A stretch of 64,000 bases of DNA from positions 56,014 to 120,013 of the forward strand of contig DATGHL010000045.1 in NCBI GenBank assembly GCA_035308025.1, read 5' to 3'. The stretch's first letter is position 1. Each line of letters starts with the position of its first letter. Shown here in pieces: positions 24,295 through 57,390 of the stretch. The stretch comes from Candidatus Binataceae bacterium. GTDB taxonomy: Bacteria > Desulfobacterota > Binatia > Binatales > Binataceae. The notes under the pieces were generated by a model. The model was not told the DNA's origin and did no database searches. It was given only the letters and a program-made list of their open reading frames with translations. The position numbers were made by a program, and so were the translations under genes.

Positions 24295-25690
24295 CTAGAA
24301 CAGTGGCAGCCTGATACCGGCCGTGATCAGTGCGCCGCTCGCGACCCCGGTCAACGCTTCGCCCGCGATCATGCCGGCCGCAATCAGAAGCCCCGGGCCC
24401 GCCTGTGCGTCGCGCTGCCGACGGAAGAGCAGCCCCCCAAGCGCACCGGCGAGAATTGTCACTCCGAGTCCGAAGGGCAGGTACAGCCCGATCGCCACCG
24501 GCATCACCGGCGTGCGCCAGCCATAGCCGCCTCGATCCAAGGCGCGATCGCTGATCAGGAGCATGGTCGCGAGCGCCGCGCCCACCGCGATCGTGCCCCA
24601 CGGCAGACCGCCGAAGAAGACGCCGTCAGCCACCTTGGCCATCAGGAAAGCCTGGGGTGCGGAGAGTGCGTGCGCGCCGGCGGCCGGCGTTCCGGCGATG
24701 CCGTAGGCGCGGATCAGCAGATTCAGAATCGGCGCCATCACGAAGGCCGAGACGGCGGCGCCGCTGAGCACCGCGATTTCGAGCGCGCGCGGCGTCGCGC
24801 GCAAATGAAACCCGGTGGCGAGATCGTGCAGGGAGTCGCCGGCCATCGCGGCCGCGACACAAACCACCGCGCCGGAGAGGATCGCGAGGCGCGGCCCGAG
24901 CGCGGCGCTCACGCCGCCCAATTTGAGCATCAGGGCGATCGCCAGCAGCACTATAATCGTCACGCCCGAGACCGGATTGTTCGAGGCTCCGACCACGCCG
25001 GTCAGATAGCCGGCGACGGCTGACGCAAAAAATCCGATCAGCACGAGCAGCAGCGCGAGCGCCACGCTGAGCCCGAGGCTGCCGCTCAAACGGTAAATGA
25101 TGACGGTGATCGCCGGCAGGCAGAGCGCGACCGCGATCGCGATGACCCGCGGCGGCAGGTCGAGGGCCTCGCGCGGGACGCGCGCCGCGGCGTCGCCTGC
25201 GCGCATCAGGCGCGAACTCTCCGCGATCCCGCCCGTGATGGAGCGGCGCAAGCGCCACAAGGTTGCCGCCCCGCCGACCACATCGCGCCGACGCCGAGAT
25301 AGCGCGTCTGTTCGTTCCAGATTTTTTGCGCGGCGGCGGCCGCCGCGAGTCCGCGCAATTCGGGATGAGTCGCGCGGGGAAGGTGAAGATCGCGCCTGCA
25401 GCGACTGCCTCGCCCGCGGAGGCGACGGTCTGGACGACGTTGTTCTCGAGCATAGTCGCGCGTCCGAGAAGGCGCAGCAGCGCCATCGAGATGACGGCTG
25501 CCGGAATGCTCGCTGAGACCGTCATGCCGGCGTAAAGCCCGAGATAGGCATTGGCCGCGCCGAGGATTAACGCGAGGATCGCGCCGAGAATGAAGGCGCG
25601 AACCGTCAGCTCGCGCTGCGCAAGCAGAGACCGTGCAGCGGGTCTAGGCGCAGGCTCGGACACGTCGCGACTATATCCGAATCGCCGCAA
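24295..25690 (-). pseudogene. OPT-family oligopeptide transporter, disrupted by two frameshifts
   Basis: The N-terminal frame (ELTVRAFILGAILALILGAANAYLGLYAGMTVSASIPAAVISMALL...AIFTFPA) is lost at about 25371. The G/C-rich middle frame reads THPELRGLAAAAAAQKIWNEQTRYLGVGAMW. A second shift at about 25279 leads into the tracked C-terminal ORF (VGGAATLWRL...NNPVSGVTIIVLL...). Confidence 0.6.
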
Positions 25691-25732: not shown

Positions 25733-26242
25733 CTACGAGGCGTGGCCCTCGCTGCCGCTCACGAGCGTGGTCGGCTGGCCCGCCTGCTTCCACCCCTTGA
25801 TACCGTCGGCCATCACACTGACGTTTTCGTAGCCGGCTTTGACCGCCCGCCGGGCGGCCTCATGCGACGCCGTTCAAAGAGTGTTCGCGCAATAGAAGAC
25901 CAGCTTCGCCTTTTTGTCTTGCGGCAGTACGGCAAGGTCGTATTTGTTGTCGGAACTCAGCAGGGTTGCGGCCGGAATCACCCCATACTCTGCGCGCGTG
26001 GAGGCGCCGTTAGCGTCATAGATGTGCACCGGCGACTTGGTATCGTTCATCATCGCCTTCAAATCGGCGACGTGGATAATCGAGAAGGTTTCGAGCGTCG
26101 GATCGTTGTCTTCATGACCCAGCAGTTGCGAGAGATCGAACGCGCGCGCCGCCGGCGCGTAGTAACCGGCCGCCAGAATCGTGAGCGCGAAGGGCGCCGC
26201 CACCGTGAGTACACGGGCGAGTCCTCGTCTGATGATGCGCAT
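25733..26242 (-). CDS. exported rhodanese-domain sulfurtransferase with in-frame UGA (candidate selenocysteine) in the active-site loop
   Basis: ATG 26242 lies 9 nt after GGGAGG, giving the signal-like MRIIRRGLARVLTVAAPFALTILAAGYYAPAARA. The tracked ORF ends at TGA 25876-25874 after LVFYCANTL. The same frame continues as TASHEAARRAVKAGYENVSVMADGIKGWKQAGQPTTLVSGSEGHAS to TAG 25735-25733, which completes the rhodanese fold. Confidence 0.65.
25841..25859 (-). promoter_or_regulatory. SECIS-like hairpin downstream of the rhodanese UGA
   Basis: RNA GGCCGCCC-GGC-GGGCGGUC; 8 bp including one G-U. The stem starts at +15 after UGA and the loop sits at +23 to +25. Confidence 0.55.
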
Positions 26243-44906: not shown

Positions 44907-45728
44907 ATGAGCAGCGCTTCAAACCTCAATTTCCTCAACCTCATTCAGGAACTGAAAGTCTTTGGCGAATTCGCGAAATTCGCAGGCAATGCCTGGACTT
45001 GGCCACTTGGCCGCCGCAGCAAGCATCCCCGCGTCATTCTACTAATCCCCGGCTTCCTGGCGGGTGACGCGACGCTCTATCCTTTCGCCAACTGGCTGCG
45101 CTCGCAGGGCCATCGAGTCTTCTTCTCGGGCATTCTGGCAAATATCGATTGTCCGCGTCGGGCCATGGATCGGCTCGGACGCATTCTGCAGGGATTGTAT
45201 GACCGTCACGATGAGAAATTAGTGGTGATTGGCCACAGCCTCGGCGGGGTCTACGCGCGGGAATTGGCGCGGCGGGCGCCCGATCAAGTCGAACAGACGA
45301 TCCTGCTCGCGTCGCCGGTCGGCAAGGTCGGGGAGCGGACGAACCCGTTCGTCCACATGCTCGCGACCTTCACGATGAAGTCGCAGGAATTTATGCGCGG
45401 ATGTTCGGGTGATCTACGCGATGTGTGCGGCGTACATTCGCCGACGCCGCCGCCGAACGTCCCCGAAGCGATCATCTTCTCGAAAGCCGACGGCGTGGTG
45501 GACTGGAGCAGTTGCCTGGAATCGGGTCCGAACGTTGAGGCCTTCGAAGTGAACGCAACCCATTGCGGCCTGCCCTACAATCTCGACACGCTGCGTATCG
45601 TGCACGATCTGATCGAGAATGGGCAGACGCCTCGCGAGCGCAAGGCGCGCGGCGGCAAAGCCTCGGTCAACAGCAAAGTGCCGTCTATTGGCAGCAGACA
45701 CGCCAACGGCGCAGCAGCCGCCTCTTAG
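44907..45728 (+). CDS. alpha/beta hydrolase, lipase/esterase-like
   Basis: 273 aa; GHSLGG nucleophile elbow and LLIPGFLAGD. Preceded by a 330-nt AT-rich spacer. Confidence 0.65.
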   Translation: MSSASNLNFLNLIQELKVFGEFAKFAGNAWTWPLGRRSKHPRVILLIPGFLAGDATLYPFANWLRSQGHRVFFSGILANIDCPRRAMDRLGRILQGLYDRHDEKLVVIGHSLGGVYARELARRAPDQVEQTILLASPVGKVGERTNPFVHMLATFTMKSQEFMRGCSGDLRDVCGVHSPTPPPNVPEAIIFSKADGVVDWSSCLESGPNVEAFEVNATHCGLPYNLDTLRIVHDLIENGQTPRERKARGGKASVNSKVPSIGSRHANGAAAAS

Positions 45729-45760
45729 CAGGCGGTTGAAAAAAAACTTCAACTGGAAGG

Positions 45761-45875
45761 TTGACGCAGCTCGCGGACCGCTAACCTCGGCCGCGCGCGT
45801 CGCGGACTCGTTTCCCGCGATGCAGCTCGCGGACTCGTCTCCCCCGACGCAGCTCGCGGACTCGCCTGCGCTACA
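45761..45875 (-). repeat. dispersed GC-rich repeat, locus E (four tandem core copies)
   Basis: TTGACGCAGCTCGCGGACCG (45761), GCGTCGCGGACTCG (45797), GATGCAGCTCGCGGACTCG (45819) and GACGCAGCTCGCGGACTCGCCTGCG (45846). Confidence 0.75.
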
Positions 45876-46012
45876 CTTCGTTCAACCGCGACTTCTCACA
45901 CAGAATCATCCCTACTTTTGATTCGCTGTTACAGGCCACTAAGTCGTTTGGACAGAACGCAGTGGTAGCCTCTCTCTTGGTTGTGTTCCGCTTCGCTAAC
46001 CTGGTGTCTCTG

Positions 46013-46897
46013 CTAGCGTAGCGCACGATTGCGTTCGACCACCGGAGTGAAGCGCTTGATCAGATCGAGCGCATGGCCGTCGGCGGTGGCGGCGACGGTT
46101 TGCTGCGAGAGCAGGACGATGCGTTCGCAGCCGGCGTCGCGCCACCACTTGAGGTCTTCGGTGGAGGGGCCGTGCTCCTGCGGATCGACCAGCGGCGAGA
46201 TGTGGACCGCGTTTTCGTCGCGGCCTTGCTCCCTGAGGAGCTTGCGCAGCGTGGCGACGTCGCGCTTGAGCTCGGCCGGGTCCTGGATGAGCGGCATCCA
46301 GCCGTCGTAGCTGCGGGCGACGCGTTCAAGCGCCTTGGGGCCGTGCGCGCCGAGAATTACCGGCGGGCCGGGCTGCTGCACGGGCCGCGGCTCGCAGCGC
46401 AGGTTCTCAAAGCGCACCAACTCTCCGGCATAAGAGGCAGTGCCCTGGCTCCAGAGCGCGCGCATCGCTTCGATACCCTCGCGCGTGCGCTTCCAGCGTG
46501 TGCCGAACTTCGCGCCCATCGCTTCGGTTTCTTCGCGCAACCAGCCGGCGCCGATCCCAAAGAGGAAACGGCCGCCGGAAAGGAGGTCGAGGCTGGCGAC
46601 GGTTTTCGCGGTGATCAGAGTCTCGCGCTCGGGAATCAAGCAGATGCCTGTGCCGAGCTTGATCTTTTTAGTGACTGCCGCGGCGGCAGCGAGGCCGACA
46701 AAGGGGTCGGCCCAGCGGCCATAGTGTTCCGGCAGCTTGCCGTTGTCGGTGAAGGGGAAGATTGTTTTCATCGCGGCGGGAATTACCGGATGCTCGGGAA
46801 TCCAGAGCGAATCAAAACCGGCGGCCTCGGTTGCGCGCGCGATCTCCGCGATATCGCCGCCCCGCGCCGTCATCGCCGCCAAAAAACCTATTTCCAT
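46013..46897 (-). CDS. LLM-class F420-dependent oxidoreductase
   Basis: 294 aa; AGFDSLWIPEHP, SLDLLSGGRFLFGIGAGW and GPPVILGAHGPKALERVAR. Confidence 0.75.
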   Translation of the reverse strand: MEIGFLAAMTARGGDIAEIARATEAAGFDSLWIPEHPVIPAAMKTIFPFTDNGKLPEHYGRWADPFVGLAAAAAVTKKIKLGTGICLIPERETLITAKTVASLDLLSGGRFLFGIGAGWLREETEAMGAKFGTRWKRTREGIEAMRALWSQGTASYAGELVRFENLRCEPRPVQQPGPPVILGAHGPKALERVARSYDGWMPLIQDPAELKRDVATLRKLLREQGRDENAVHISPLVDPQEHGPSTEDLKWWRDAGCERIVLLSQQTVAATADGHALDLIKRFTPVVERNRALR

Positions 46898-47064
46898 TTT
46901 CGGTTTCTCTCCTGATGTTGAGTGTTAACCCGCTCGTCTTCTCCGCGTACCGATATATTGATCGGATTTGCAAGGGTGCAGCCGGCAACGAGGAGAATAA
47001 TCGCGCAACCCATGCGTAACGTACAAGGGCCTCAGCGTCGGCGAGATCGCGGCGCGAGCTAACG

Positions 47065-47162
47065 AAGAATCTTGACGCAGCTCGCGGACTCCTGACGTAG
47101 GCCGCGCGTCGCAGACTCCGCCCCCCGTGCGCGCTTTGCGCTGCTGCCGCGCTCCGCTAGCG
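47065..47162 (-). repeat. dispersed GC-rich repeat, copy D
   Basis: AAGAATCTTGACGCAGCTCGCGGACTC ... GGCCGCGCGTCGCAGACTCCGCCCCCC ... GCCGCGCTCCGCTAGCG. It combines both modules of the family, in reverse orientation. Confidence 0.8.
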
Positions 47163-47244
47163 TTGGGCGCGCGTATGCGCTTATGCTCGACGTGGCCGGC
47201 GGTTTCCGGATTAAAACCGGACGCCTGGCGAAGAGGAGGAGTGC

Positions 47245-47487
47245 ATGTCGATCATTGGTTGGATAATTCTTGGACTCATCTCGGGCTTTATCGCGAGTAA
47301 AATCGTGAACAAGAGCGGCGAAGGGTTGGTGCGCGATATATTGTTAGGCGTGGTGGGCGCGCTGGTGGGCGGCTTTCTGTTCACCCATTTGGGCGCAGCC
47401 GGCGTCTCGGGCGTAAATCTATACAGTATGTTCGTCTCAGTGATCGGCGCGATCATCGTACTGGTGGCGTATCACGCTATCGTCTAG
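47245..47487 (+). CDS. GlsB/YeaQ/YmgE-family stress membrane protein
   Basis: 80 aa; IIGWIILGLISGFIASKIV, DILLGVVGALVGGFLF. Confidence 0.7.
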   Translation: MSIIGWIILGLISGFIASKIVNKSGEGLVRDILLGVVGALVGGFLFTHLGAAGVSGVNLYSMFVSVIGAIIVLVAYHAIV

Positions 47488-47498
47488 GAGATCGGACA

Positions 47499-47696
47499 GT
47501 GACGCTGATTAATATCGTAGTCGTGCTGCTTGTGATTGGCGTTTTGCTCTGGCTGATCAATACGTACGTGCCGATGGCGGGCGGCATCAAGACGCTGCTC
47601 AACCTGGTGGTTTTCCTGGTCGTCTTGATATGGCTGCTGCAATTATTCGGGCTGATCGGGAATATTCCAGGGGTTCACATTCCGCGCTTGATGTAA
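47499..47696 (+). CDS. small two-TM membrane protein (Thivi_2564-like)
   Basis: 65 aa; GTG after GGAGAT; MTLINIVVVLLVIGVLLWLINTYVPM...VVFLVVLIWLLQLFGL. Confidence 0.5.
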   Translation: MTLINIVVVLLVIGVLLWLINTYVPMAGGIKTLLNLVVFLVVLIWLLQLFGLIGNIPGVHIPRLM

Positions 47697-47737
47697 AAGT
47701 ATCGGGCTGCGCGGACGAGTGCGGTGTGGAGGGATTT

Positions 47738-48511
47738 ATGGCAATCCGACTTCGGCAAATCTGTTTGGTTGCAGCGCAGCTTGCGCCAACGCTCACCGAC
47801 TTCAAGGAAATCTTCGGTCTTGAGGTTTGTTTTGTTGATCCGGCGGTCGCGGCGTTCGACCTCGAGAATTCGCTGATGGCGGTCGGCAGCAACTTCATCG
47901 AAGTAGTGGCGCCGATCAAGGAAAACACCGCCGCCGGCCGCTACCTCAAGCGGCGTAACGGCGATGGCGGCTACATGGTTATCTGCCAATGCGACTCGCA
48001 TGAAACTCAGGCCGCGCGGAAAGCCCGCGCCGCGGCGATGAATATTCGCGTCGCCTGGGAGCATGAGTCGTCGAGCTTCCACGCCATGCAACTCCATCCG
48101 GCGGACACCGGCGGAGCATTCTTCGAGATCGATTGGGATAAGCGCAACCAGCCCGAGGGGCACTGGGAGCCCGCAGGCGGCGACGGCTGGAGCGCGTCGC
48201 GAAACAAACCTTTGGTCAGCCACTATACCGCGGTTGAGTTACAGTCGGCCGACCCGCGCGGACTGGCCGAGCGCTGGAGCAGTATCGTCGAGACGCCTTT
48301 GCACGAGGACGCTCGCGGCCGCTTCGAGCTCCCATTCGATAACGCTAGCGTGCGTTTTGTCGAGGCGCGCGATGGCCGGGGCGAAGGGCTCAGCGGGATC
48401 GATATTGTGACAAGCGATCGCAAGCACGTGATCGCGGCGGCAGAGCGCCGCGGATATCGCACCGCGGACGATCAGGTGACTATCTGCGGCACGCGTTTTT
48501 ATCTGGCGTAA
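47738..48511 (+). CDS. VOC/glyoxalase-like domain protein
   Basis: I prefer ATG 47738 (MAIRLRQICLVAAQLAPTLTDFKEIFGL), 257 aa; FIEVVAPIKENTAAGRYLKRRNGDGGYMV. Confidence 0.55.
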   Translation: MAIRLRQICLVAAQLAPTLTDFKEIFGLEVCFVDPAVAAFDLENSLMAVGSNFIEVVAPIKENTAAGRYLKRRNGDGGYMVICQCDSHETQAARKARAAAMNIRVAWEHESSSFHAMQLHPADTGGAFFEIDWDKRNQPEGHWEPAGGDGWSASRNKPLVSHYTAVELQSADPRGLAERWSSIVETPLHEDARGRFELPFDNASVRFVEARDGRGEGLSGIDIVTSDRKHVIAAAERRGYRTADDQVTICGTRFYLA

Positions 48512-48536
48512 TACTCAGGAAAGCATTGGAAAACTG

Positions 48537-49640
48537 ATGAAAGCATTGATCGTAGGCGGCACCGGACCGACCGGTCCATTTCTGGCGCACGGACTGATCC
48601 AGCGGGGCTACAAGGTCACGATTTTCCATCGCGGCACGCACGAGATTCCGGAGATTCCGCCGGAGGTTAATCATCTGCACGGCGATCCGCATTTTCGCGA
48701 GACGATTGAGAGCGTGGTAGGAAATCGCACCTACGACGTGGTGATTGCGACGTACGGGCGGATTCGTTTCGTGGCGGAGGCTTTGGCAGGCAAGACCGCC
48801 TGCTTTATCGCGATCGGAGGGGTGCCGAGCTATCGCGGCTATTTCGAGCCGTCGGCGAATTTCCCCTCCGGCTTGCTGGTCGGCATGCCGGAAGACGCGC
48901 CGCTGGTCGCGAGCGAGCAGGAGCATCGTTTTTCGTGGCTGATCAAAAGCACCGAGGATGCGGTGCTGAAGGTTCATCCGAACGGCGTGGTCTATCGCTA
49001 CCCGTATGTGTATGGGCCGTATCAACTGATCCCGCGCGAATGGTGCATCATCCGGCGGATTCTCGACGGGCGGCGCGAGATTCTGATTCCGGACGGCGGG
49101 CTCTCGCTGATGACGCACGGCTACGCGGAAAATCTGGCGCACGCGGTGCTGCTGGCGGTCGATCAGCCGAAAGTGGCGGCTGGGCAGATCTATAATTGCG
49201 GCGACGAACAGCAGCTCTCGTTGCGGCAGGTGGTCGAGGTGATCGCACGCGAGCTGGGGCGCGAGCTCGAGGTGGTCAGTATTCCGGATTCGTTCGGGAC
49301 GTCGGCGCGTTCGATTTCGATCGGGGGCAGCGTGAACCATCGGGTGATGGATCTGTTCAAGATCAAGACGCAACTCGGCTATCGCGATCTGATTCCGGCG
49401 GTGCAGGCGATTGCGAAGACCTCGCAATGGTACGTCGCCAATCGGCCGGAGCGCGGCGGCGAGATCGAGCAGCGGCTGCAGGATCCATTCGATTACGCTG
49501 CGGAAGACAAGATCATCGCGATCCTGCGCGAAGCCGGGCGGCAAGCCGCGGCGGTCGCGACGCATACGATTGTGCCGACGCCCCATCCGTATCCCCATCC
49601 GAAAGAGCCGAACCTGGAACGCGATCATCGCAATCGCTGA
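48537..49640 (+). CDS. NAD-dependent epimerase/dehydratase (extended SDR)
   Basis: 367 aa; N-terminal MKALIVGGTGPTGPFLAHGLIQRGYKVTIFHRG. Confidence 0.7.
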   Translation: MKALIVGGTGPTGPFLAHGLIQRGYKVTIFHRGTHEIPEIPPEVNHLHGDPHFRETIESVVGNRTYDVVIATYGRIRFVAEALAGKTACFIAIGGVPSYRGYFEPSANFPSGLLVGMPEDAPLVASEQEHRFSWLIKSTEDAVLKVHPNGVVYRYPYVYGPYQLIPREWCIIRRILDGRREILIPDGGLSLMTHGYAENLAHAVLLAVDQPKVAAGQIYNCGDEQQLSLRQVVEVIARELGRELEVVSIPDSFGTSARSISIGGSVNHRVMDLFKIKTQLGYRDLIPAVQAIAKTSQWYVANRPERGGEIEQRLQDPFDYAAEDKIIAILREAGRQAAAVATHTIVPTPHPYPHPKEPNLERDHRNR

Positions 49641-49714
49641 GCGGCGGTCATCGGACGTTGGTCTTTGACAAGCAGTTGGTCACGAATCACAGCATCCGAG
49701 GGGAGGAAAGGAAG

Positions 49715-50263
49715 ATGGCCCAAGTCAGTCTGATCCCGTTTCCGCAGGTTGCTCCCGAACTTCAGGAGATCATGAGGACTTACGACAAGGAATATGCGGG
49801 TTCGGAATTTGTCCGTGCATTCGCGCATGCCCCAGAGGTCTTCAAGTCCTTCGCAAGCTACTACTTTCCGCTCATCTTCGAGACCCGCGGTAGTCTCGAT
49901 ATGCGGTTGACCGAGATGGTGCGGCTCAAGGTGGCGGAGAAGAACGACTGCGCGCTTTGAATGAACGGGCGTGTCGCCTTGGCAAGGCGACAAGGGCTGA
50001 CCGAAGAACAAATCGCGGAGTTGCGTAATTTTCGCGAGAGCAAGATTCTGACCGCGCCGGAGAAGGCCGCGGTCTGGTACGCGGAAGTGCTCGCTGGCGA
50101 TCACACACAGGCATCCGAAGCGTTATTTGATGAATTGCGCCGACATTTCACGGAGACCGAGATTATCGACCTGGGATTTCGCATCACCGCGTTCGTTGGG
50201 TATGGGCGCCTGATCCGCGCGCTCGGACTGGAACGGGGAGGAGTCTGCCCGCTGCCGGGTTGA
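49715..50263 (+). CDS. AhpD/carboxymuconolactone-decarboxylase-like selenoprotein (CxxU)
   Basis: ATG 49715 after GGGAGGAAAGGAAG. 81 codons lead to KVAEKNDCAL, then TGA 49958-49960. The tracked ORF 49961-50263 follows directly in the same frame (MNGRVALARRQGLTEEQIAELRNF...). The joined 182-residue product has the CMD-domain layout, with the TGA at the second Cys of CxxC. Confidence 0.75.
49973..49991 (+). promoter_or_regulatory. SECIS-like hairpin downstream of the AhpD-like UGA
   Basis: RNA GUCGCCUU-GGC-AAGGCGAC; a perfect 8-bp stem starting at +13 after UGA, with the loop at +21 to +23. Confidence 0.65.
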
Positions 50264-50342
50264 TCTTGCCGTCGCAGTCGGGTCGGTTGTGGTGCACCTC
50301 GACCTGCTTTGCTCGGCGGGCCCAGCGCTGTAGATTTCCGAC

Positions 50343-51764
50343 ATGAACGCGAGCGTAATCGGCGACTACGTTGATCGGCTGTGGCGCGAATCGATCGTGC
50401 CGGAACTCATCGAGTACGTCCGGATTCCGAACAAGTCGCCGGCCTTCGACAAGGAGTGGCGCGAGCACGGCTACATGGATCAGGTGGTTGCGCGCTTTGA
50501 GGCGTGGGCGCGCGCGCAGCCGATCCGGCAGATGAAGTTCGAGATCGTGCGGACCGAGAAGCGCACGCCGCTGATTCTGATCGATATTGCGGGGGACGCG
50601 GCGGCGGACCCGGGCGACAGCGTGCTGCTGTATGGCCATCTGGACAAGCAGCCGGAGATGACCGGGTGGCGCGACGGCCTGGGGCCGTGGCAGCCGGCGC
50701 TCGAAGGCGATCGGCTCTACGGACGCGGCGCAGCGGATGACGGCTACGCGATGTTCGCCTGCCTGGGCGCGATCGGCGCGCTGCAGGCCGCGGCGATGCC
50801 TCATGCGCGTTGCGTGGTGATTATCGAAGCCTGCGAGGAGAGTGGGAGCTTCGACCTGCCGCATTATATCGGGGAGCTTGGCGAGCGGATCGGCCGGCCG
50901 AGTTTGGTCGTCGGGCTCGATTCGGGCTGCGGGAATTACGATCAGCTCTGGAGCACGACGTCGCTGCGCGGGCTGGCTGGCGGGACGCTCAAGGTCGAAG
51001 TGCTGACCGAAGGGATTCACTCAGGGGCGAGCGGGATCGTGCCCGACAGCTTCCGCATCGCGCGCCAGTTGCTCAACCGAATCGAGGATGAAAAGACCGG
51101 CCGCATACTGGTTGAGGAATATCACGTCGCGATTCCGCCGGCGCGGATCAAGGAAGCGGAGACGGCGGCGGTGATTCTCAAGGACTCGATCCGCGCGGAG
51201 TTTCCGTTCGTCGACGGGGCGCGGCCGGCGTCGGAGGACATCGCGGAGTTAATCCTGAATCGCGACTGGCGGCCGGCGCTGTCGATTATCGGCGCCGACG
51301 GGATTCCGCAGATCGGCAACGCGGGCAATGTTTTGCGGCCGTCGACGACGCTTCAGCTATCGCTGCGGATTCCGCCCGGATGCGACCCCAAGCAGGCGAA
51401 CCGCAGTATGAAAGAGACCCTCGAAAAGGATCCGCCTTACGGCGCGAAGGTGAGTTTCAGCAGTAACTGGGGCGCCAGCGGATGGAATGCGCCGGCGCTC
51501 GCGCCGTGGCTGGAGAAGTCGCTCGAGGCGGGTTCACAGCGCTGGTTCGGCCGGCCGGCGGCCTACATGGGACTCGGTGGAACGATCCCATTCATGAGCA
51601 TGTTGGGCGAAAAATTTCCCGAAGCGCAATTCCTGATCAGCGGCGTGCTCGGGCCGCACTCGAACGCGCACGGTCCCAACGAATTTCTGCACGTGCCCTA
51701 TGCCCGCAAGCTGACCTGTTGCGTCGCCGAAGTGATCGCAGATCATTTCCGCCGAGCGCCCTGA
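50343..51764 (+). CDS. M20-family metallopeptidase (dipeptidase/ArgE-DapE-like)
   Basis: 473 aa; LLYGHLDKQPEM, LYGRGAADDGYA and IEACEESGS. Confidence 0.75.
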   Translation: MNASVIGDYVDRLWRESIVPELIEYVRIPNKSPAFDKEWREHGYMDQVVARFEAWARAQPIRQMKFEIVRTEKRTPLILIDIAGDAAADPGDSVLLYGHLDKQPEMTGWRDGLGPWQPALEGDRLYGRGAADDGYAMFACLGAIGALQAAAMPHARCVVIIEACEESGSFDLPHYIGELGERIGRPSLVVGLDSGCGNYDQLWSTTSLRGLAGGTLKVEVLTEGIHSGASGIVPDSFRIARQLLNRIEDEKTGRILVEEYHVAIPPARIKEAETAAVILKDSIRAEFPFVDGARPASEDIAELILNRDWRPALSIIGADGIPQIGNAGNVLRPSTTLQLSLRIPPGCDPKQANRSMKETLEKDPPYGAKVSFSSNWGASGWNAPALAPWLEKSLEAGSQRWFGRPAAYMGLGGTIPFMSMLGEKFPEAQFLISGVLGPHSNAHGPNEFLHVPYARKLTCCVAEVIADHFRRAP

Positions 51765-51833
51765 CCGCGCAAGCTGTACGGATAAGCGCCACTGTGGTTA
51801 GATCAGGCGAGAATTCAACGCACAGGATGCGAG

Positions 51834-52967
51834 GTGAACGTCTTGGACTATAACGTCATCGACGCCGACGGCCATATCTGCGAACCCCCCGATTTGTGGG
51901 AGCGCTATATCGAACCCAAGTATCGCGAAGGCTGCCCTAAGCTGATCACGCTGGCGGACGGCGAGGAGATCCTGCGGATTGAAGGCGATTACGCGATCTC
52001 GCTGAGCCGCGGCAAGCAGAAGGTAAGCTTCGGCGCGACCGGCGCCATCGGTGCGCGCGAGGGCAAGGTCAACCCGCGAATCCCGTACATCGAAGGGCGC
52101 AAGGGCGGCTTCGATCCGCACGCGCGCATCCCCGACATGGACGCGGAGGGGATCGATGCGGCGTTTCTCTACCCGAGCCTCGGGCTGTTCATGGGCGCGA
52201 CGAAAGATCCGGAATTCTCGGCGGCGGTCTGCCGCGCCTACAATCGCTGGCTCGCGGACTACTGCAAACCCTATCCGGAGCGGCTGTTCGGTGCGGCGAT
52301 GTTGCCGATGCAATCGGTCGAGGGCGCCGTCCAGGAGATGCGTTTCGCCGCAAAGGAACTGGGGTTCCGCGCCGGCTTCATCCGCCCGAATCCTTACAAC
52401 GGCCGTGTGCTGCACGACCCCGAATACGATCCGCTATGGAACGAGGCGCAAGAGCTGGGTTTCTCGATTGGTATCCACGGCGGCTCTGAGAGCGGCCAAC
52501 CGACGCTCGCGATGGATCGTTTCACGCGCGGCGGGGCCGTGCGCCACGTCGTCGCGCACACCTTCGAGATGATTGCGGCGGCGACCAGCCTGATCATGTG
52601 CGGCGTCTGCGATCGGTTTCCTAAAGTGAAGTTCGCTTTCCTGGAATCGGGCGGCGGCTGGATGGCGGGATGGCTCGATCGGATGGACCGGCACTACGAC
52701 GACGTCGGCATGAACGACACGCATCTCTCGATGCGGCCGAGTGAATTGTTCCGCCGCCAATGCTTTATCTCGTTCGAGCCAGTCGAGGGCTCGCTCAAGC
52801 ATCTGGCCGAGTATATCGGCTCGGAGAATATCCTGTGGGCGACCGATTATCCGCATCTTGACGGCTTCACCGATGCGCCCGGGATGATCAAGCGGATGGG
52901 GCTGGCGCCGGCGACCTTGCATAACGTCCTCGCGGTCGGGGCCAAGCGGTACTATAACCTGCAGTAG
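51834..52967 (+). CDS. amidohydrolase_2 (ACMSD-like), paralogue 1
   Basis: 377 aa. TTG 51843, after GAGGTG, would give MDYNVIDADGHI, matching paralogue 2. VIDADGHICEPPDLWERY; C-terminal WATDYPHLDG. Confidence 0.8.
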   Translation: MNVLDYNVIDADGHICEPPDLWERYIEPKYREGCPKLITLADGEEILRIEGDYAISLSRGKQKVSFGATGAIGAREGKVNPRIPYIEGRKGGFDPHARIPDMDAEGIDAAFLYPSLGLFMGATKDPEFSAAVCRAYNRWLADYCKPYPERLFGAAMLPMQSVEGAVQEMRFAAKELGFRAGFIRPNPYNGRVLHDPEYDPLWNEAQELGFSIGIHGGSESGQPTLAMDRFTRGGAVRHVVAHTFEMIAAATSLIMCGVCDRFPKVKFAFLESGGGWMAGWLDRMDRHYDDVGMNDTHLSMRPSELFRRQCFISFEPVEGSLKHLAEYIGSENILWATDYPHLDGFTDAPGMIKRMGLAPATLHNVLAVGAKRYYNLQ

Positions 52968-53007
52968 CTGGCGTCCTACATAATGTAGACAGAGGCGAGG
53001 AAGCAGA

Positions 53008-54138
53008 ATGGATTACAAAGTTATCGACGCCGACGGCCACATCCTGGAGCCGCCGGATTTGTGGGAACAGTATATCGAGCCCAAGTTCCGCGACGTCTGC
53101 CCCAAAGTGCTGATGAGCGACGACGGCGGTGAGCTGCTGCGGATCGAAGGCGATCGCGCGATCGACCTCGGGCGCGGGAAGCGCACGGTCAAGCTCGGCG
53201 CGCTGGGTAACTTCGGCGCGCGCGCCGGCGGCACGATGAACTCGAAGCTGATGCCTTATCTTGAGGGCAAGCGCGGCGGTTTCGATCCGCACGCGCGGAT
53301 TCCGGACATGGACGCCGAGGGGATCGACGCGGCGTTTCTCTACCCGAGCCTCGGGCTGTTCATGGGCGCGACCCAGGAGCCGGAGTTTTCCGCGGCGGTC
53401 TGCCGCGCCTACAACCGCTGGCTCGCGGACTACTGCAAGGCCTATCCGGAGCGGTTGTTCGGCGCGGCGATGATTCCGATGCAATCGATCGAGCACGCGG
53501 TGCAGGAGCTGCAATTCGCGGTCAAAGAGCTGAACTTTCGCGCGGGCTTTATCCGGCCGAATCCCTACAATGGCCGCACCCTGCACGATCGTGATTATGA
53601 TCCGTTGTGGCAGGCGGCGCAGGAGGCCGATTTCTCGATCGGCATCCACAGCGGCTCGGAGAGCGGCCAGCCGACCATCGGGTTCGATCGGTTCACGCGC
53701 GGCTTCGCCGTGCGCCACCTGGTTGCGCATACGATGGAGATGATGGCGGCAGCCGCGAGCCTGATCATGTGCGGCGTCTGCGATCGTTTCCCTGGGCTGA
53801 GGATCGCGTTTCTCGAATCGGGCGGCGGTTGGATCGCCGGATGGCTCGATCGCATGGACCGCCATTTCGACGATATCGGGATGAACGACACCGGACTATC
53901 GATGCGGCCCAGCGAACTGTTCCGCCGGCAGTGCTTCATCTCATTCGAGCCGGTCGAAGGCTCTCTCAAGCATCTGGCCGAGTACATCGGTTCGGACAAT
54001 ATCTTGTGGGCGACGGACTATCCGCACGCCGACGGCTTCCCCGACGCGCCCAACATGATCAAGCGGATGGGGCTCAAGCCCGAGACGCTCGCGAACGTGC
54101 TGGGTGGCGGCGCGAAGCGCTACTACAACTTGCACTGA
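53008..54138 (+). CDS. amidohydrolase_2 (ACMSD-like), paralogue 2 (tandem duplicate)
   Basis: 376 aa. Long stretches are identical to the upstream gene: HARIPDMDAEGIDAAFLYPSLGLFMGAT, EFSAAVCRAYNRWLADYCK, SMRPSELFRRQCFISFEPVEGSLKHLAEYIGS. Confidence 0.8.
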   Translation: MDYKVIDADGHILEPPDLWEQYIEPKFRDVCPKVLMSDDGGELLRIEGDRAIDLGRGKRTVKLGALGNFGARAGGTMNSKLMPYLEGKRGGFDPHARIPDMDAEGIDAAFLYPSLGLFMGATQEPEFSAAVCRAYNRWLADYCKAYPERLFGAAMIPMQSIEHAVQELQFAVKELNFRAGFIRPNPYNGRTLHDRDYDPLWQAAQEADFSIGIHSGSESGQPTIGFDRFTRGFAVRHLVAHTMEMMAAAASLIMCGVCDRFPGLRIAFLESGGGWIAGWLDRMDRHFDDIGMNDTGLSMRPSELFRRQCFISFEPVEGSLKHLAEYIGSDNILWATDYPHADGFPDAPNMIKRMGLKPETLANVLGGGAKRYYNLH

Positions 54139-54215
54139 CCGCAGGGAATGGCGCATCAGGCGGACAGTCTCACGAGGGCTGCCCGTTTTTGCTTCGAGAG
54201 AGCTTGGGATCCGGG

Positions 54216-54310
54216 GTCCTTATCTTGGCCGCGCCTCGCGGATTCGGCCACCCACTGAGGCGCGGCTAAAATAAGAGATGCTCCACGCGGGGCGGACTTC
54301 GCAGTTCGCC
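54216..54310 (+). repeat. degenerate copy (G) of the dispersed repeat
   Basis: GTCCTTATCTTGGCCGCGCCTCGCGGATTCGG parallels AGTCTTTATCTTGGCCGCGCGTCGCAGACTCCG at 58846. CGCGGGGCGGACTTCGCAGTTCGCC parallels the GGGGCGGAGTCTGCGACGCG module. Confidence 0.45.
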
Positions 54311-54407
54311 CGGCGGTTTTTTGTGCACCTGACATAGCGCCGCTTGACATCGGCGTCGCGACGCGGAATGAAGGTCCATCACTGCGCAAGCAGCATGGAG
54401 TATCCCG

Positions 54408-55481
54408 ATGGAATTTGCGCTTTCTTATCCGGCTCGCCCGGACGCCTGGAAGGACCTCGTAGTCGCCGAGGATCACGGCTTCACGCAATGCTGGTTCTAC
54501 GATTCGCAGATGATCTACAGCGACGTGTACGTCTGCATGGCGCTGGCGGCCGAGCGCACGAAACGGATCAAACTCGCGACCGGCGTGGCGATTCCGTCGA
54601 ACCGGATCGAGCCGGTGACAGCGCATTCGATCGCGACCATCAATCTGCTGGCGCCGGGCCGCACGGTGCTCGGGATCGGCAGCGGCTTCACCGGGCGCAA
54701 TACGATGGGGTTGCCGCCGGTGCGGCTCGAACGGATTCGCGAGTACGTCGCGATGGTGCGCAAGCTGCTGCGCGGCGAAGAGGTGATCTATCACGAGGGC
54801 AAGCGCGAGCAGCCGATTCGGTTCCTCCATCAGGACCACGGCTATATCAATCTGAAGGATCCGATTCCGATTCATCTCGCTGCGGACGGGCCGAAGGCGC
54901 TCGAGTTGACCGGTGAGATCGCAGACGGCTGGTTGACCGTGCTGTCGGATGCGGAGCGCTTCAAACAAAAATATGAGTCAGTCAAGCGCGGAGCGCAGCG
55001 CGCGGGCCGTTCATTCGATCATCTGCCAAACGCGATTTTGACTTCGGGCTGCGTGCTGCGCGACGGGGAAAAGGCCGATTCGCCGCGCGTGGTGGAGCGG
55101 ATGGGGCCGTTCGCGATGGTCTTTCTGCATGCGCTGTGGGAGGCGTCGGCGGTCGCGAGCGGCCTGCAGGGGCCGCTGCTCAAGCTCTGGGAGCGCTATC
55201 GCGATGAGCATATTCCGACGATGAAGACGCCGGCGTCCAAGCGCTACCTCGAAATGCACGAGGGCCATCTCATCTATATGCGGCCCGGCGAGGAAAAATT
55301 CGCCAATGCGGATTTGCTCGGGACGATGACGCTGACGGGACGCGGCGAGGAGCTGCGGGCGAGGGTCAAGGCGCTCGAAGCGGCGGGCGTCAAGCAGATC
55401 GCGATCCAGGTGGTGCCGCCCTTCGGACGCGAGATGATCGAGGATTTCAGCCGCGAAGTGATCGCCAAGTACCGCGCGTGA
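54408..55481 (+). CDS. LLM-class F420-dependent oxidoreductase
   Basis: 357 aa; AEDHGFTQCWFYDSQ, ATINLLAPGRTVLGIGSGF and LAADGPKALELTGEIADGW. Confidence 0.75.
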   Translation: MEFALSYPARPDAWKDLVVAEDHGFTQCWFYDSQMIYSDVYVCMALAAERTKRIKLATGVAIPSNRIEPVTAHSIATINLLAPGRTVLGIGSGFTGRNTMGLPPVRLERIREYVAMVRKLLRGEEVIYHEGKREQPIRFLHQDHGYINLKDPIPIHLAADGPKALELTGEIADGWLTVLSDAERFKQKYESVKRGAQRAGRSFDHLPNAILTSGCVLRDGEKADSPRVVERMGPFAMVFLHALWEASAVASGLQGPLLKLWERYRDEHIPTMKTPASKRYLEMHEGHLIYMRPGEEKFANADLLGTMTLTGRGEELRARVKALEAAGVKQIAIQVVPPFGREMIEDFSREVIAKYRA

Positions 55482-56662
55482 GCAGGCCGCTCGAAGGACT
55501 GCGGGTTATCGAGGTTGCGCAGATTTACGCGGGGCCCTACTGCGGCCTCCAGCTTGCGCATTTCGGCGCCGAGGTGATCAAGATCGAGCCGCCGGGCGAG
55601 GGCGAATTTCTGCGGATGCGTCCGCCGAATGCGCACGGCGCCAACGCGGGTTTCCTGATGCTCAACCCGGGTAAGAAGTCGGTGACGCTGAATCTCAAAG
55701 CGCCGCGCGGACGCGAACTGCTGCTCCGTCTGCTCGCCGGCGCGGATGTGCTCGTCGAGAACTACGCGGCAGGCGTCCTTGAGCGGCTGGGCTTCAGCTA
55801 CGACGATCTGGCGGCGCGGTTTCCGCGGCTGATCTATGCGTCGTGCAAGGGCTACGGCGCCGACAGCCGCTGGGCGAACCTTGGTGCGATGGACTTCACC
55901 GTGCAGGCAGCGTCGGGGATCATCGATATGACCGGATACGCCGATCGGCCGGGCGTCCGCGCGACGGCGGCGCTGATCGATACCAGCGCGGGGATGCATC
56001 TGGTGGCCGGCATCATGGCCGCGCTGATTGAGCGCGGACGCAGCAGCCGCGGCCGCAAGGTCGAAGTCGCGATGCTCGATGTCTGCGTACCGGCGGTCAA
56101 CGGCATGATCGCCAGCGCGCTCGATGGGAATCCGCTGCCGCGCCTGGCGAATCGGCATCCGAGCGCGTGCCCGTCGAATACCTACGCGGCCGCGGACGGC
56201 GAAATCCTGATCTACTGCCTGACCGAAGATCATTGGCGGCGCTTTGCCCGCCTGATGGACCGCGCGGATCTGCTCGATGAACCGCGCTACTGTGACCACC
56301 AGGGGCGCTACCAGATTATCGACGAAGTCGATGAGCTCGTCGGCGCCTGGGTGGCGCCGCGCAAACGTGACGAGCTGGTCGATCTTCTGATCGAGCACGG
56401 TATCCCGTGCGCGCCGGTCCGGACGATCACCGAGGTCGCGACCGATGAAGAACTCAAGTTGCGCGGTCTTTTGCGCATCGGCGAGTTTGCCGGTCACGGC
56501 GAAGTCAATGTGCTCGGGTCGGCGATCAAGCTGTCGGGTGAGGCCGGGGCAAGCGACAAACTGAGAGTGCCGGCGCTCGGCGAAGATACCGACGACATTC
56601 TGACGGAGCTGGGAGTGGCGCGGGTGGAGATCCTCGAACTGCGGCGGGACGGCGTGATTTGA
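55478..56662 (+). CDS. family III CoA-transferase (CaiB/BaiF)
   Basis: 394 aa; GTGA overlap with the upstream gene. LEGLRVIEVAQIYAGPYCGLQLAHFGAEVIKIEPP; VENYAAGVLERLGFSYDDL. Confidence 0.85.
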   Translation: MSRPLEGLRVIEVAQIYAGPYCGLQLAHFGAEVIKIEPPGEGEFLRMRPPNAHGANAGFLMLNPGKKSVTLNLKAPRGRELLLRLLAGADVLVENYAAGVLERLGFSYDDLAARFPRLIYASCKGYGADSRWANLGAMDFTVQAASGIIDMTGYADRPGVRATAALIDTSAGMHLVAGIMAALIERGRSSRGRKVEVAMLDVCVPAVNGMIASALDGNPLPRLANRHPSACPSNTYAAADGEILIYCLTEDHWRRFARLMDRADLLDEPRYCDHQGRYQIIDEVDELVGAWVAPRKRDELVDLLIEHGIPCAPVRTITEVATDEELKLRGLLRIGEFAGHGEVNVLGSAIKLSGEAGASDKLRVPALGEDTDDILTELGVARVEILELRRDGVI

Positions 56663-56706
56663 AACGCTGCGCCGGCGCGGCGCAAGGCGGATTCGGGAGG
56701 CCCAAG

Positions 56707-57390
56707 ATGAACGAGTATTTCAAGCTGGAAAAGCAGGACGGTGTCGCGACCCTGACTTTTGATCGCGACGAGAAGCGCAACCCGCTGAATGAGCACAGTA
56801 TTGCAGAGCTCGAAGCTAACCTTATCGCGGTGCGCAGCGATGCCGACGTGCGCGCACTGTTGATTACCGGCACGGGGCGCGCCTTTTGCGCCGGCGCGGA
56901 CATCTCGCGGCTCAAGGGCGTCAGTGATCCGGCGGAGCGCCATCGGCTGTTCAGCACAGCCTCGCCGCGGGCGCGGCAGGTTTTGCGCCGCACCTTGGCG
57001 ATGCTGAAGGATATCGAGCTGCCGACGGTCTCGGCGGTCAACGGATTCGCGGTCGGCGGCGGATGGTTTCTCGCGCTCGCGTGCGATCTGCGGATCGCCG
57101 TCGAGGGTGCCGAATTCTGGCTGCCGGAGGTCGATCTGGGCGCGCCCGGACCGCGCGGACCCGAGCAATGGATGGCGGCTCACGTCGGCGCCGCGCGCGC
57201 CAAGGAGATCACCTTTACCTGCCGTCACTTCAAGGCTGACGAGCTTTATCAATGGGGACTGTTGAATCGCGTGGTCAAGCGCGAAGAGCTGATGCCGGTC
57301 GCGCTTGAGCTGGCGCGCAGTCTGGCGGCGAAAAACCACGCGGCGATTGTGCAGGCGAAGGCGCAGATCAATGGATTCTTCCTGGAGTAA
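56707..57390 (+). CDS. enoyl-CoA hydratase/isomerase family
   Basis: I prefer ATG 56707, after GGGAGG (MNEYFKLEKQDGVATLTFDRDEKRNPLN). CAGADIS; NGFAVGGGWFLALACD. Confidence 0.75.
   Translation: MNEYFKLEKQDGVATLTFDRDEKRNPLNEHSIAELEANLIAVRSDADVRALLITGTGRAFCAGADISRLKGVSDPAERHRLFSTASPRARQVLRRTLAMLKDIELPTVSAVNGFAVGGGWFLALACDLRIAVEGAEFWLPEVDLGAPGPRGPEQWMAAHVGAARAKEITFTCRHFKADELYQWGLLNRVVKREELMPVALELARSLAAKNHAAIVQAKAQINGFFLE

Follow-up and report, generated by a model that had tools for sequence, protein, structure and literature searches.

Gene organization of the locus

In the 64,000-nucleotide stretch of Candidatus Binataceae DNA analyzed in this study (hereafter, the window), two open reading frames abut in one frame at a TGA codon (49958–49960), which is immediately followed by an ATG at 49961. 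Direct reading gave ...LKVAEKNDCAL as the residues preceding this TGA. The region from 49715 to 50263 is one gene unit, not two, and its features, all on the forward strand, are listed below.

49700–49714, +: purine run GGGGAGGAAAGGAAG, Shine-Dalgarno-like, read directly from the sequence and abutting the start codon
49715–50263, +: one uninterrupted gene of 182 codons (81 + Sec + 100), encoding a candidate selenoprotein of the AhpD/CMD family, with the CMD domain spanning the internal TGA
49715, +: start ATG of the coding sequence
49913–49915, +: codon GAG for Glu67, equivalent to the proton-relay residues Glu36 of PA0269 and Glu118 of M. tuberculosis AhpD
49949–49951, +: codon TGC for Cys79, with which the C-A-L-U redox motif begins
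49958–49960, +: in-frame TGA, codon 82, the proposed Sec codon (U82) at the position of the second Cys of CxxC
49970–49972, +: codon CGT for Arg86, at +4 from Sec, the position of the relay His in classical AhpD-like proteins
49972–49992, +: SECIS-like hairpin inside the coding sequence with a perfect 9-bp stem, UGUCGCCUU-GGC-AAGGCGACA (5′ arm, 49972–49980; GGC loop, 49981–49983; 3′ arm, 49984–49992)
50246–50248, +: codon for Cys178 of an invariant C-terminal Cys-Pro-Leu, retained in a clade without Cys79
50261–50263, +: terminal stop TGA of the coding sequence

The abutting frames, the start at ATG 49715 behind a ribosome-binding site, and a joined product of 182 residues had been proposed in the original prediction, and all three were borne out: the 81, 1, and 100 residues were counted in the sequence, and the full-length homologues all aligned from the Met encoded by this ATG. 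The real upstream gene occupies 48537–49640, and the 5′ part of the open reading frame 49196–49960 overlaps it out of frame; the portion of this reading frame upstream of 49715 is therefore a noncoding artefact. A promoter and terminator scan found nothing.

A single CMD domain across the TGA

When the joined protein was searched with U read as C, the Pfam CMD profile (PF02627) matched with 45.8 bits against a cut-off of 23, and the match covered residues 40–120, corresponding to profile positions 1–79 of 84, straight through the TGA. The two halves searched separately scored 16.2 and 17.5 bits, each under the cut-off. The sole NCBIfam model passed was TIGR00778 (AhpD core domain), with 30.1 versus a cut-off of 27.8. 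TIGR01926 (peroxidase-related enzyme) and NF053654 (YciW-related (seleno)protein) gave full-length matches that were sub-threshold, with 46.1 versus 81.8 and 58.1 versus 310, respectively, and sub-threshold matches were also obtained with NF041047 (GSU3128; 22.7 versus 110) and NF041238 (CFYUT; 19.4 versus 175). Judged by these profile scores, the 182-residue protein is homologous to the AhpD-related (seleno)protein families of NCBIfam and to TIGR01926, and is a member of none of them. The CMD-domain layout expected for the joined product was confirmed in that a single domain extends over both halves, which match this one CMD/AhpD domain rather than unrelated families.

Conservation of the TGA codon and its Cys counterparts

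One genome per species was scanned by tblastn, and 80 loci were recovered; most came from Candidatus Binatia MAGs, closed chromosomes among them, and some came from Gammaproteobacteria. The codon aligned to the TGA at 49958 was TGA in 77 loci and TGC (Cys) in the other three, and the matches spanned residues 1–180 through the TGA in 79 of the 80. The nearest locus, in a Candidatus Binataceae MAG, was 81% identical. Many Binatia genomes had two TGA paralogues (for example, L018 and L043 in OX638322.1), and a third, adjacent paralogue accompanied L022 and L028. In one paralogue clade (L072 and L076), Sec and the C-terminal Cys were kept and Cys79 was absent (SSAKP-U). One orthologue, L001, had an extra TAG at codon 67, and this locus may be damaged or mis-assembled.

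A search of 5.8 billion proteins yielded 10 full-length homologues with approximately 60% identity and approximately 50 proteins of 100–110 amino acid residues that comprised the C-terminal half only, several of them starting with MNGRVALA..., right behind the TGA. At the TGA column, nine of the 10 full-length homologues had Cys (C-R-L-C), and one had "W"; the DNA of the latter has TGA at this column and was translated under another code. In PA0269, an AhpD-like protein of P. aeruginosa and the best match among solved structures, C-A-Y-C-V-N-M-H aligned with C-A-L-U-M-N-G-R. Among representative sequences, many clusters at ≤50% identity consisted of fragments that ended at residue 81 or started at residues 84–85; because these clusters are broken at the TGA column, the Sec forms are numerous and diverse.

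The Cys-containing orthologues whose search had been suggested were found as nine full-length proteins and three genomic loci, and the placement of the TGA at the second Cys of CxxC held in all of them as well as in the CAYC motif of PA0269. The UGA is conserved, with a Cys/Sec pair at the CxxC motif, and the pattern of this column goes far beyond what chance would give. Of 78 Sec forms, only 42 have a possible start codon directly behind the TGA, and the other 36 have ATT, ATC, CTG, AAG, CAG, AGG, ATA, or CTA there. A start for the 3′ half is thus not conserved, and the reading as two open reading frames fails.

A constrained hairpin downstream of the UGA

A perfect stem after the TGA was present as predicted; its dimensions were revised from 8 bp beginning 13 nt after the TGA to 9 bp beginning 11 nt after it, and the eight pairs without the outer U-A begin at 12 nt. 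Folding suggested that a weaker lower stem reaches approximately 49966–49999. According to the bSECIS model (PMC13188914), a bacterial SECIS has a loop of 3–9 nt with G in its first two positions, a stem of 4–16 bp, a UGA-to-loop distance of 16–37 nt, and an MFE no higher than −7.5 kcal/mol. The hairpin in the window is within all four limits, with a 9-bp stem, a GGC loop that begins 20 nt after the UGA, and a stem-only energy of −12.4 kcal/mol. All 78 Sec forms passed when the geometry and the MFE of the region were scored separately, and 58 of the 78 failed the energy criterion under strict scoring of the bulge-free stem only, the stem-only energy in most orthologues being approximately −6.3 to −6.6 kcal/mol. 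Two of the three Cys-form controls also contained some hairpin that passed the model, which on its own therefore discriminates poorly in this G+C-rich DNA. Rfam searches of the window at gathering thresholds and of the local region at E ≤ 10 returned no SECIS family; their only match, a flavivirus stem-loop, was dismissed as chance.

Because the bSECIS model is permissive, covariation and register specificity provide the stronger evidence. Among 40 distinct Binatia-type sequences, covariation was found for pairs 18–32 (UA/CG), 21–29 (CG/UA/GC), and 22–28 (UA/CG), with 27 double-change cells, and the observed level was reached in 0 of 500 shuffles. The helix was 92% paired, compared with 33–55% when the partners were slid by 1–3 columns, and the apex U-GGC-A was invariant in these Binatia-type sequences. 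The changes in the 5′ arm were synonymous (Val/Phe third, Ala third, and Leu first codon positions), and the partner changes in the 3′ arm altered the amino acid (Arg/Lys/Ala and Arg/Gln). The gammaproteobacterial orthologues had another hairpin of 7 bp with a GGUC, AGUU, or AGGU loop, shifted by approximately 2.5 nt, which showed compensatory variants of its own. Sec forms had 7–8 of 8 pairs (Binatia register) or 7 of 7 (gammaproteobacterial register), compared with 1–3 of 8 and 4–5 of 7, respectively, in Cys forms. As an RNA structure, the hairpin is under constraint and specific to UGA forms.

Similar to the SECIS of the E. coli fdhF type and to bSECIS elements, the hairpin lies within the coding sequence, its stem starts 11 nt after the UGA, and its apical loop is small; U-GGC-A fits N1-G-[G/U]-N-N2, and the distance of 20 nt is within 16–37 nt. 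Its sequence is unrelated to that of the E. coli fdhF SECIS, and it has a GGC triloop rather than the GGUC loop, which is used by gammaproteobacterial orthologues.

Fold, active-site residues, and the Arg subfamily

An AF2 model was generated for the Cys orthologue P0002, which is 59% identical to the 182-residue protein. The model (pLDDT 77, pTM 0.74) was all-helical with nine helices, and in it C79 and C82 cap helix 80–92 at its N-terminus. Foldseek searches with this model returned Bmp8, PA0269, 2prr, Atu0492, D. radiodurans AhpD, and mlr4105 with TM scores of 0.6–0.7; PA0269 was the best PDB sequence match (E ~1e-14), with TM scores of up to 0.76–0.81 when normalized to the target. E. coli YnjA, an AhpD-like protein of 182 residues, had no detectable tblastn similarity to the window or to the orthologue loci.

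The helix-turn-helix active-site motif is shared with PA0269 (PDB 2ijc, 2o4d, and 7xw1) and M. tuberculosis AhpD. Glu36 and Cys48 of PA0269 are kept as Glu67 and Cys79, the second Cys (Cys51) is replaced by Sec82, and two further residues are changed: Tyr50 (His132 in AhpD) to Leu81 and His55 (His137 in AhpD) to Arg86. The protein also differs from both in an extra N-terminal segment of approximately 40 residues and in the invariant C-terminal Cys-Pro-Leu, of which Cys178 is a possible third redox residue. In AhpD-like proteins, the proton relay consists of Glu, Cys, His/Tyr, Cys, and His, and both Cys residues and the His are reported to be invariant and essential (PMC3141380). Since the relay His is Arg and the Tyr/His is Leu in the present protein, AhpD-type peroxidase chemistry should not simply be assumed.

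Glu67 was Glu in 79 of the 80 loci (TAG in L001) and in 106 of 111 diverse representatives, Cys79 was kept in 78 loci, and Arg86 was Arg in all 80, including the three Cys forms; of the 77 Sec loci, 74 had the complete residue set E/C/L/U/R. Among the 111 representatives, 93 had CxxCxxxR and three had CxxCxxxH. The Arg in place of His at +4 was therefore correctly noticed in the original prediction and is not the deviation that it was taken for, and it is no consequence of Sec, because Cys forms and 93 of 111 relatives carry it as well. The E...CxxU/CxxxR proteins are a large uncharacterized CMD subfamily without a solved structure and without a specific NCBIfam model.

Genomic context and a second selenoprotein candidate

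The neighbors in the window encode NAD-epimerase-like, M20 peptidase, and Amidohydro_2 proteins, which did not recur beside the orthologues, and the nearby genes are catabolic (amidohydrolases, luciferase-like monooxygenases, and CoA-transferase). De novo clustering of neighbors revealed only clade-specific genes (SDR, Leu/Phe-tRNA transferase, APH kinase, and acyl-CoA dehydrogenase). Neither a conserved operon partner around the 80 loci nor, among their recurrent neighbors or the neighbors in the window, a gene for AhpC/peroxiredoxin was found, and the gene differs in the latter respect from those of classical AhpD peroxidases. Since synteny is not conserved, no function can be inferred from the context.

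A scan across the window for a TGA combined with a G-loop hairpin and an open frame identified a second, unrelated candidate; a GC3-based scan for read-through TGAs gave off-frame noise only and missed both candidates.

26242–25733, −: candidate gene for a secreted rhodanese-like selenoprotein (start ATG at 26242; internal TGA, 25876–25874; stop TAG, 25735–25733)

In the predicted product, a signal peptide precedes a rhodanese domain, and the motif at the TGA is FYC-ANTL-U-TAS. The joined domain scored 40.0 bits over profile positions 3–102 of 102, and the N-terminal part alone scored 15.2. The TGA column was Cys in 11 of 11 full-length homologues, truncated relatives annotated as "hypothetical proteins" ended exactly at ...CAN(T/S/W)L, and two syntenic orthologues retained the TGA and the hairpin GCCGCCC-GGC-GGGCGGU. 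The loop of the rhodanese-gene hairpin is GGC, 22 nt after the UGA. This second apparent Cys/Sec pair offers independent, indirect support for the use of Sec in the organism. Stems with a GGC apex were found in four places in Binatia, namely in the present gene, in two paralogue types, and in the rhodanese gene; that these four unrelated stems share an apical-loop determinant, as expected if one SelB reads all of them, is suggested by this agreement.

Proposed function and alternative explanations

The region 49715–50263 is, on the comparative evidence, very probably a selenoprotein gene. We assign a probability of roughly 0.88 to the full reading, in which it is a single gene for an oxidoreductase of the AhpD/CMD fold whose UGA is read as Sec through SelB recruitment by the hairpin, with chemistry carried out by Sec82 and Cys79. 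During translation, UGA 49958 would be decoded as selenocysteine, the hairpin at 49972–49992 recruiting SelB with Sec-tRNA(Sec) through its U-GGC-A apex in competition with release factor 2. Cys79-Ala-Leu-Sec82 would constitute the active site, whose counterpart in the P0002 model caps the N-terminus of a helix. The nucleophilic attack on an oxidized substrate would be made by the selenolate of Sec82, which would next form a selenenylsulfide with Cys79 and then be reduced again by an external thiol system. In place of the Glu/His proton relay of AhpD, the protein would use Glu67 and Arg86, and these two residues would tune the nucleophile. We propose a generic role as a thiol/selenol oxidoreductase with moderate confidence, and the default guess for the substrate, by analogy with AhpD-like relatives, would be a peroxide or a disulfide-type oxidant.

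An alternative, which we consider improbable though not negligible, keeps the selenoprotein and makes it a small-molecule reductase, for example one that carries out reductive dehalogenation of the Bmp8 type, instead of an AhpC-coupled or peroxide-reducing AhpD. The tetrabromopyrrole debrominase Bmp8 (6ohi and 6ohj) was the top Foldseek match (TM ~0.64), has a similar length (approximately 187 residues) and the CMD fold, and has been proposed to dehalogenate by oxidizing its own cysteines to a disulfide (PMC5577590), a cysteine-based two-electron reductive chemistry that may be counted as a further likeness. The exchange of the relay His for Arg all through the subfamily, the lack of ahpC or a conserved redox partner nearby, and the catabolic neighbors would also agree with such a role. 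However, the identity to Bmp8 is only 18–19%, AhpD-like structures match equally well, no bmp cluster surrounds the gene, and nothing points to a halogenated substrate; the neighbors say little because synteny is not conserved.

Far less likely is a selenium-free read-through of the UGA, with Trp, Cys, or Gly inserted by near-cognate decoding and the hairpin acting only as a generic stimulator. When E. coli SelA, SelB, and SelD served as tblastn queries, no selA, selB, or selD was detected in the 64-kb window or in approximately 0.8 Mb of related loci, ARAGORN found no tRNA-Sec in the window or the 80 loci, and one public gene caller gave Trp for the TGA of an orthologue. The absence of sel genes and tRNA-Sec is uninformative because the sample comprised only the window and approximately 0.8 Mb; as the machinery was not seen, we infer the actual insertion of Sec at UGA 49958 instead of observing it. 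Among the long open reading frames of the window, TGA was the commonest ordinary stop (30 of 56), and this gene ends with it as well; there is thus no genome-wide reassignment of TGA. Against selenium-free decoding stand this normal use of TGA as a stop, the UGA in place of a catalytic CxxC Cys, which is the classic Cys/Sec signature, the small G-rich apical loop of the SelB type at the canonical distance, the GGC apex common to four different Binatia stems, and the established existence of CxxU AhpD-like selenoproteins (PMC1088965 and PMC2398784).

A broken or split gene, either a nonsense pseudogene or two open reading frames of 81 and 100 residues coupled at TGA-ATG, as the public gene calls, the ATG directly after the TGA in the window, and the additional TAG of L001 might suggest, is effectively refuted: a pseudogene would not account for a nonsense codon that occupies the same column, between conserved flanks, in 77 loci of two phyla (Binatia and Gammaproteobacteria), neither half is a complete domain, no 3′ start is conserved, and the hairpin evolves by compensatory changes.

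Relation to known selenoproteins and implications

Unlike its occurrence in this lineage, the class to which the preferred reading assigns the gene is not new, since the Sargasso Sea selenoproteome published in 2005 (PMC1088965) already included AhpD-like selenoproteins of the CxxU type along with CMD-domain ones. AhpD-like 1 (COG2128) and AhpD-like 2 (pfam02627) were abundant in the GOS survey of 2008 (PMC2398784), and a 2026 review lists selenoprotein entries under TIGR01926 and PF02627 (PMC13188914). AhpD-like/CMD selenoproteins are also present in BSepDB, and NCBIfam holds several AhpD-related "(seleno)protein" models. Compared by their descriptions, the surveyed families and the present protein share the CMD/AhpD fold, the CxxU motif, a hairpin directly 3′ of the UGA, Cys homologues, a length of approximately 180 residues, and a full-length sub-threshold match to TIGR01926; the present gene differs in belonging to the subfamily with Arg for the relay His and to the lineage Binatia. 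Current understanding is not overturned by a member of a class that has been catalogued for twenty years.

What is new here is the lineage, the absence of an equivalog model that captures the protein, and the uniform mis-annotation of the Sec forms as fragments. Public gene calls split the gene into open reading frames of 81 and 100 amino acid residues, and the Sec forms of the clade were half-length or split in public databases, often labelled "hypothetical protein" or given the family name on a half product, with one Trp read-through; no Sec form annotated at full length was found among the public proteins and gene calls searched. Because of this mis-annotation, too few selenoproteins are counted in Binatia and in some Gammaproteobacteria; with a dedicated model that combines E...CxxU/CxxxR and the hairpin, the annotation of dozens of genomes would be corrected.

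The phylum Binatia is uncultured and known from MAGs. In the literature searched, no paper linking Binatia/Binatota with selenocysteine was found. The present gene, along with the rhodanese-like candidate, indicates that Binatia probably use selenocysteine; if true, Binatia would be a lineage whose use of selenium had not been reported before and whose SECIS elements follow a GGC-triloop design of their own. A bolder proposal, which we put forward only tentatively and regard as doubtful, is that the E...C-x-x-(U/C)-x-x-x-R proteins form a branch in which the His relay of AhpD is replaced by Arg, that they are almost obligate selenoproteins in Binatia, with 2–3 paralogues per genome, and that their chemistry is distinct from that of AhpD. 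The natural Sec/Cys series and the Arg-for-His variant would be useful for studying nucleophile activation in the AhpD fold. In the clade without Cys at −3 from Sec (SSAKP-U), the retained C-terminal Cys-Pro hints at a different resolving partner and at a chemistry unlike that of AhpD, such as a Bmp8- or deiodinase-like reduction of small molecules.

A rhodanese-like candidate selenoprotein

The window also carries a rhodanese-like gene, which, judged from its sequence, is a candidate for a second selenoprotein gene, unrelated to the AhpD-like one.

Features of the rhodanese-like gene and its downstream region (window coordinates)
26242-25733, minus strand: rhodanese-like selenoprotein candidate; signal peptide and rhodanese-like domain with an in-frame TGA
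25876-25874, minus strand: in-frame TGA, motif FYC-ANTL-U-TAS
25859-25841, minus strand: hairpin of 8 bp with a GGC loop, the loop starting 22 nt past the UGA
24295-25281 and 24626-25690, minus strand: two long overlapping ORFs directly 3' of the rhodanese-like gene

The rhodanese domain crosses the TGA, scoring 40.0 bits for the joined product versus 15.2 bits for the N-terminal part alone, and the TGA column was occupied by Cys in all 11 full-length homologues (11/11). The TGA was kept in two syntenic orthologues, and the protein is cut to 122 aa in public gene calls. At the place corresponding to the downstream ORF pair, the orthologous locus L085 has one OPT-family transporter gene; a frameshift, or an artefact of ORF calling, may account for the pair in the window.

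AhpD-like paralogues and orthologues

Some genomes that bear the label 'delta proteobacterium' have, right beside the orthologue of the main gene, a third AhpD-like paralogue that is more divergent; these neighbours are adjacent selenoprotein paralogues.

Third AhpD-like paralogue, …VAVHNACTL-U-RGAVYASARH…
L022:5528-6160, plus strand
L028:4279-5001, minus strand

The hairpin of the third paralogue is AUGCCUC-GGC-GAGGCAU, with a UGA-to-loop distance of 20 nt. Second copies (codons around 5244) were found at L072 and L076, in genomes also holding the orthologous loci L042 and L019. Sec and the hairpin are kept in this paralogue clade, in which Ser-Ser-Ala-Lys-Pro-U replaces Asn-Asp/Glu-Cys-x-Leu-U, leaving no Cys at position -3. 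The C-terminal Cys (GGPCP) is still present and may serve as an alternative resolving residue.

The closest orthologue of the main gene, L001 from a Binataceae MAG (81% identity), contains an additional in-frame TAG (L001:2127-2129) at the invariant Glu67 codon, which is GAG elsewhere. Either the TAG stems from an error in sequencing or assembly, or this copy is decaying.

Among the 78 Sec-form sequences, the base immediately following the Sec UGA (window 49961 and equivalents) was A 66 times and C 12 times; G and U did not occur there (0/78). This bias may reflect selection on stop-codon context (weak RF2 termination) or merely the encoded amino acids.

Gene neighbourhood and comparison with E. 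coli

The main gene lies among typical catabolic genes, none of which (window 44907-57390) is conserved as a neighbour of the selenoprotein gene in other genomes.

Neighbours of the main gene and the E. coli reference
Window 44907-57390: two Amidohydro_2, two luciferase-like monooxygenases, family III CoA-transferase, enoyl-CoA hydratase, M20 peptidase, alpha/beta hydrolase
L086:516-1064: E. coli K-12 ynjA, 182-aa 'AhpD-like domain-containing protein'

A tblastn search with YnjA detected no similarity in the window or the fetched loci. In E. coli, one operon encodes both YnjA and YnjE, a rhodanese-type sulfurtransferase; AhpD-like and rhodanese-like families are likewise paired in the window, approximately 24 kb apart.
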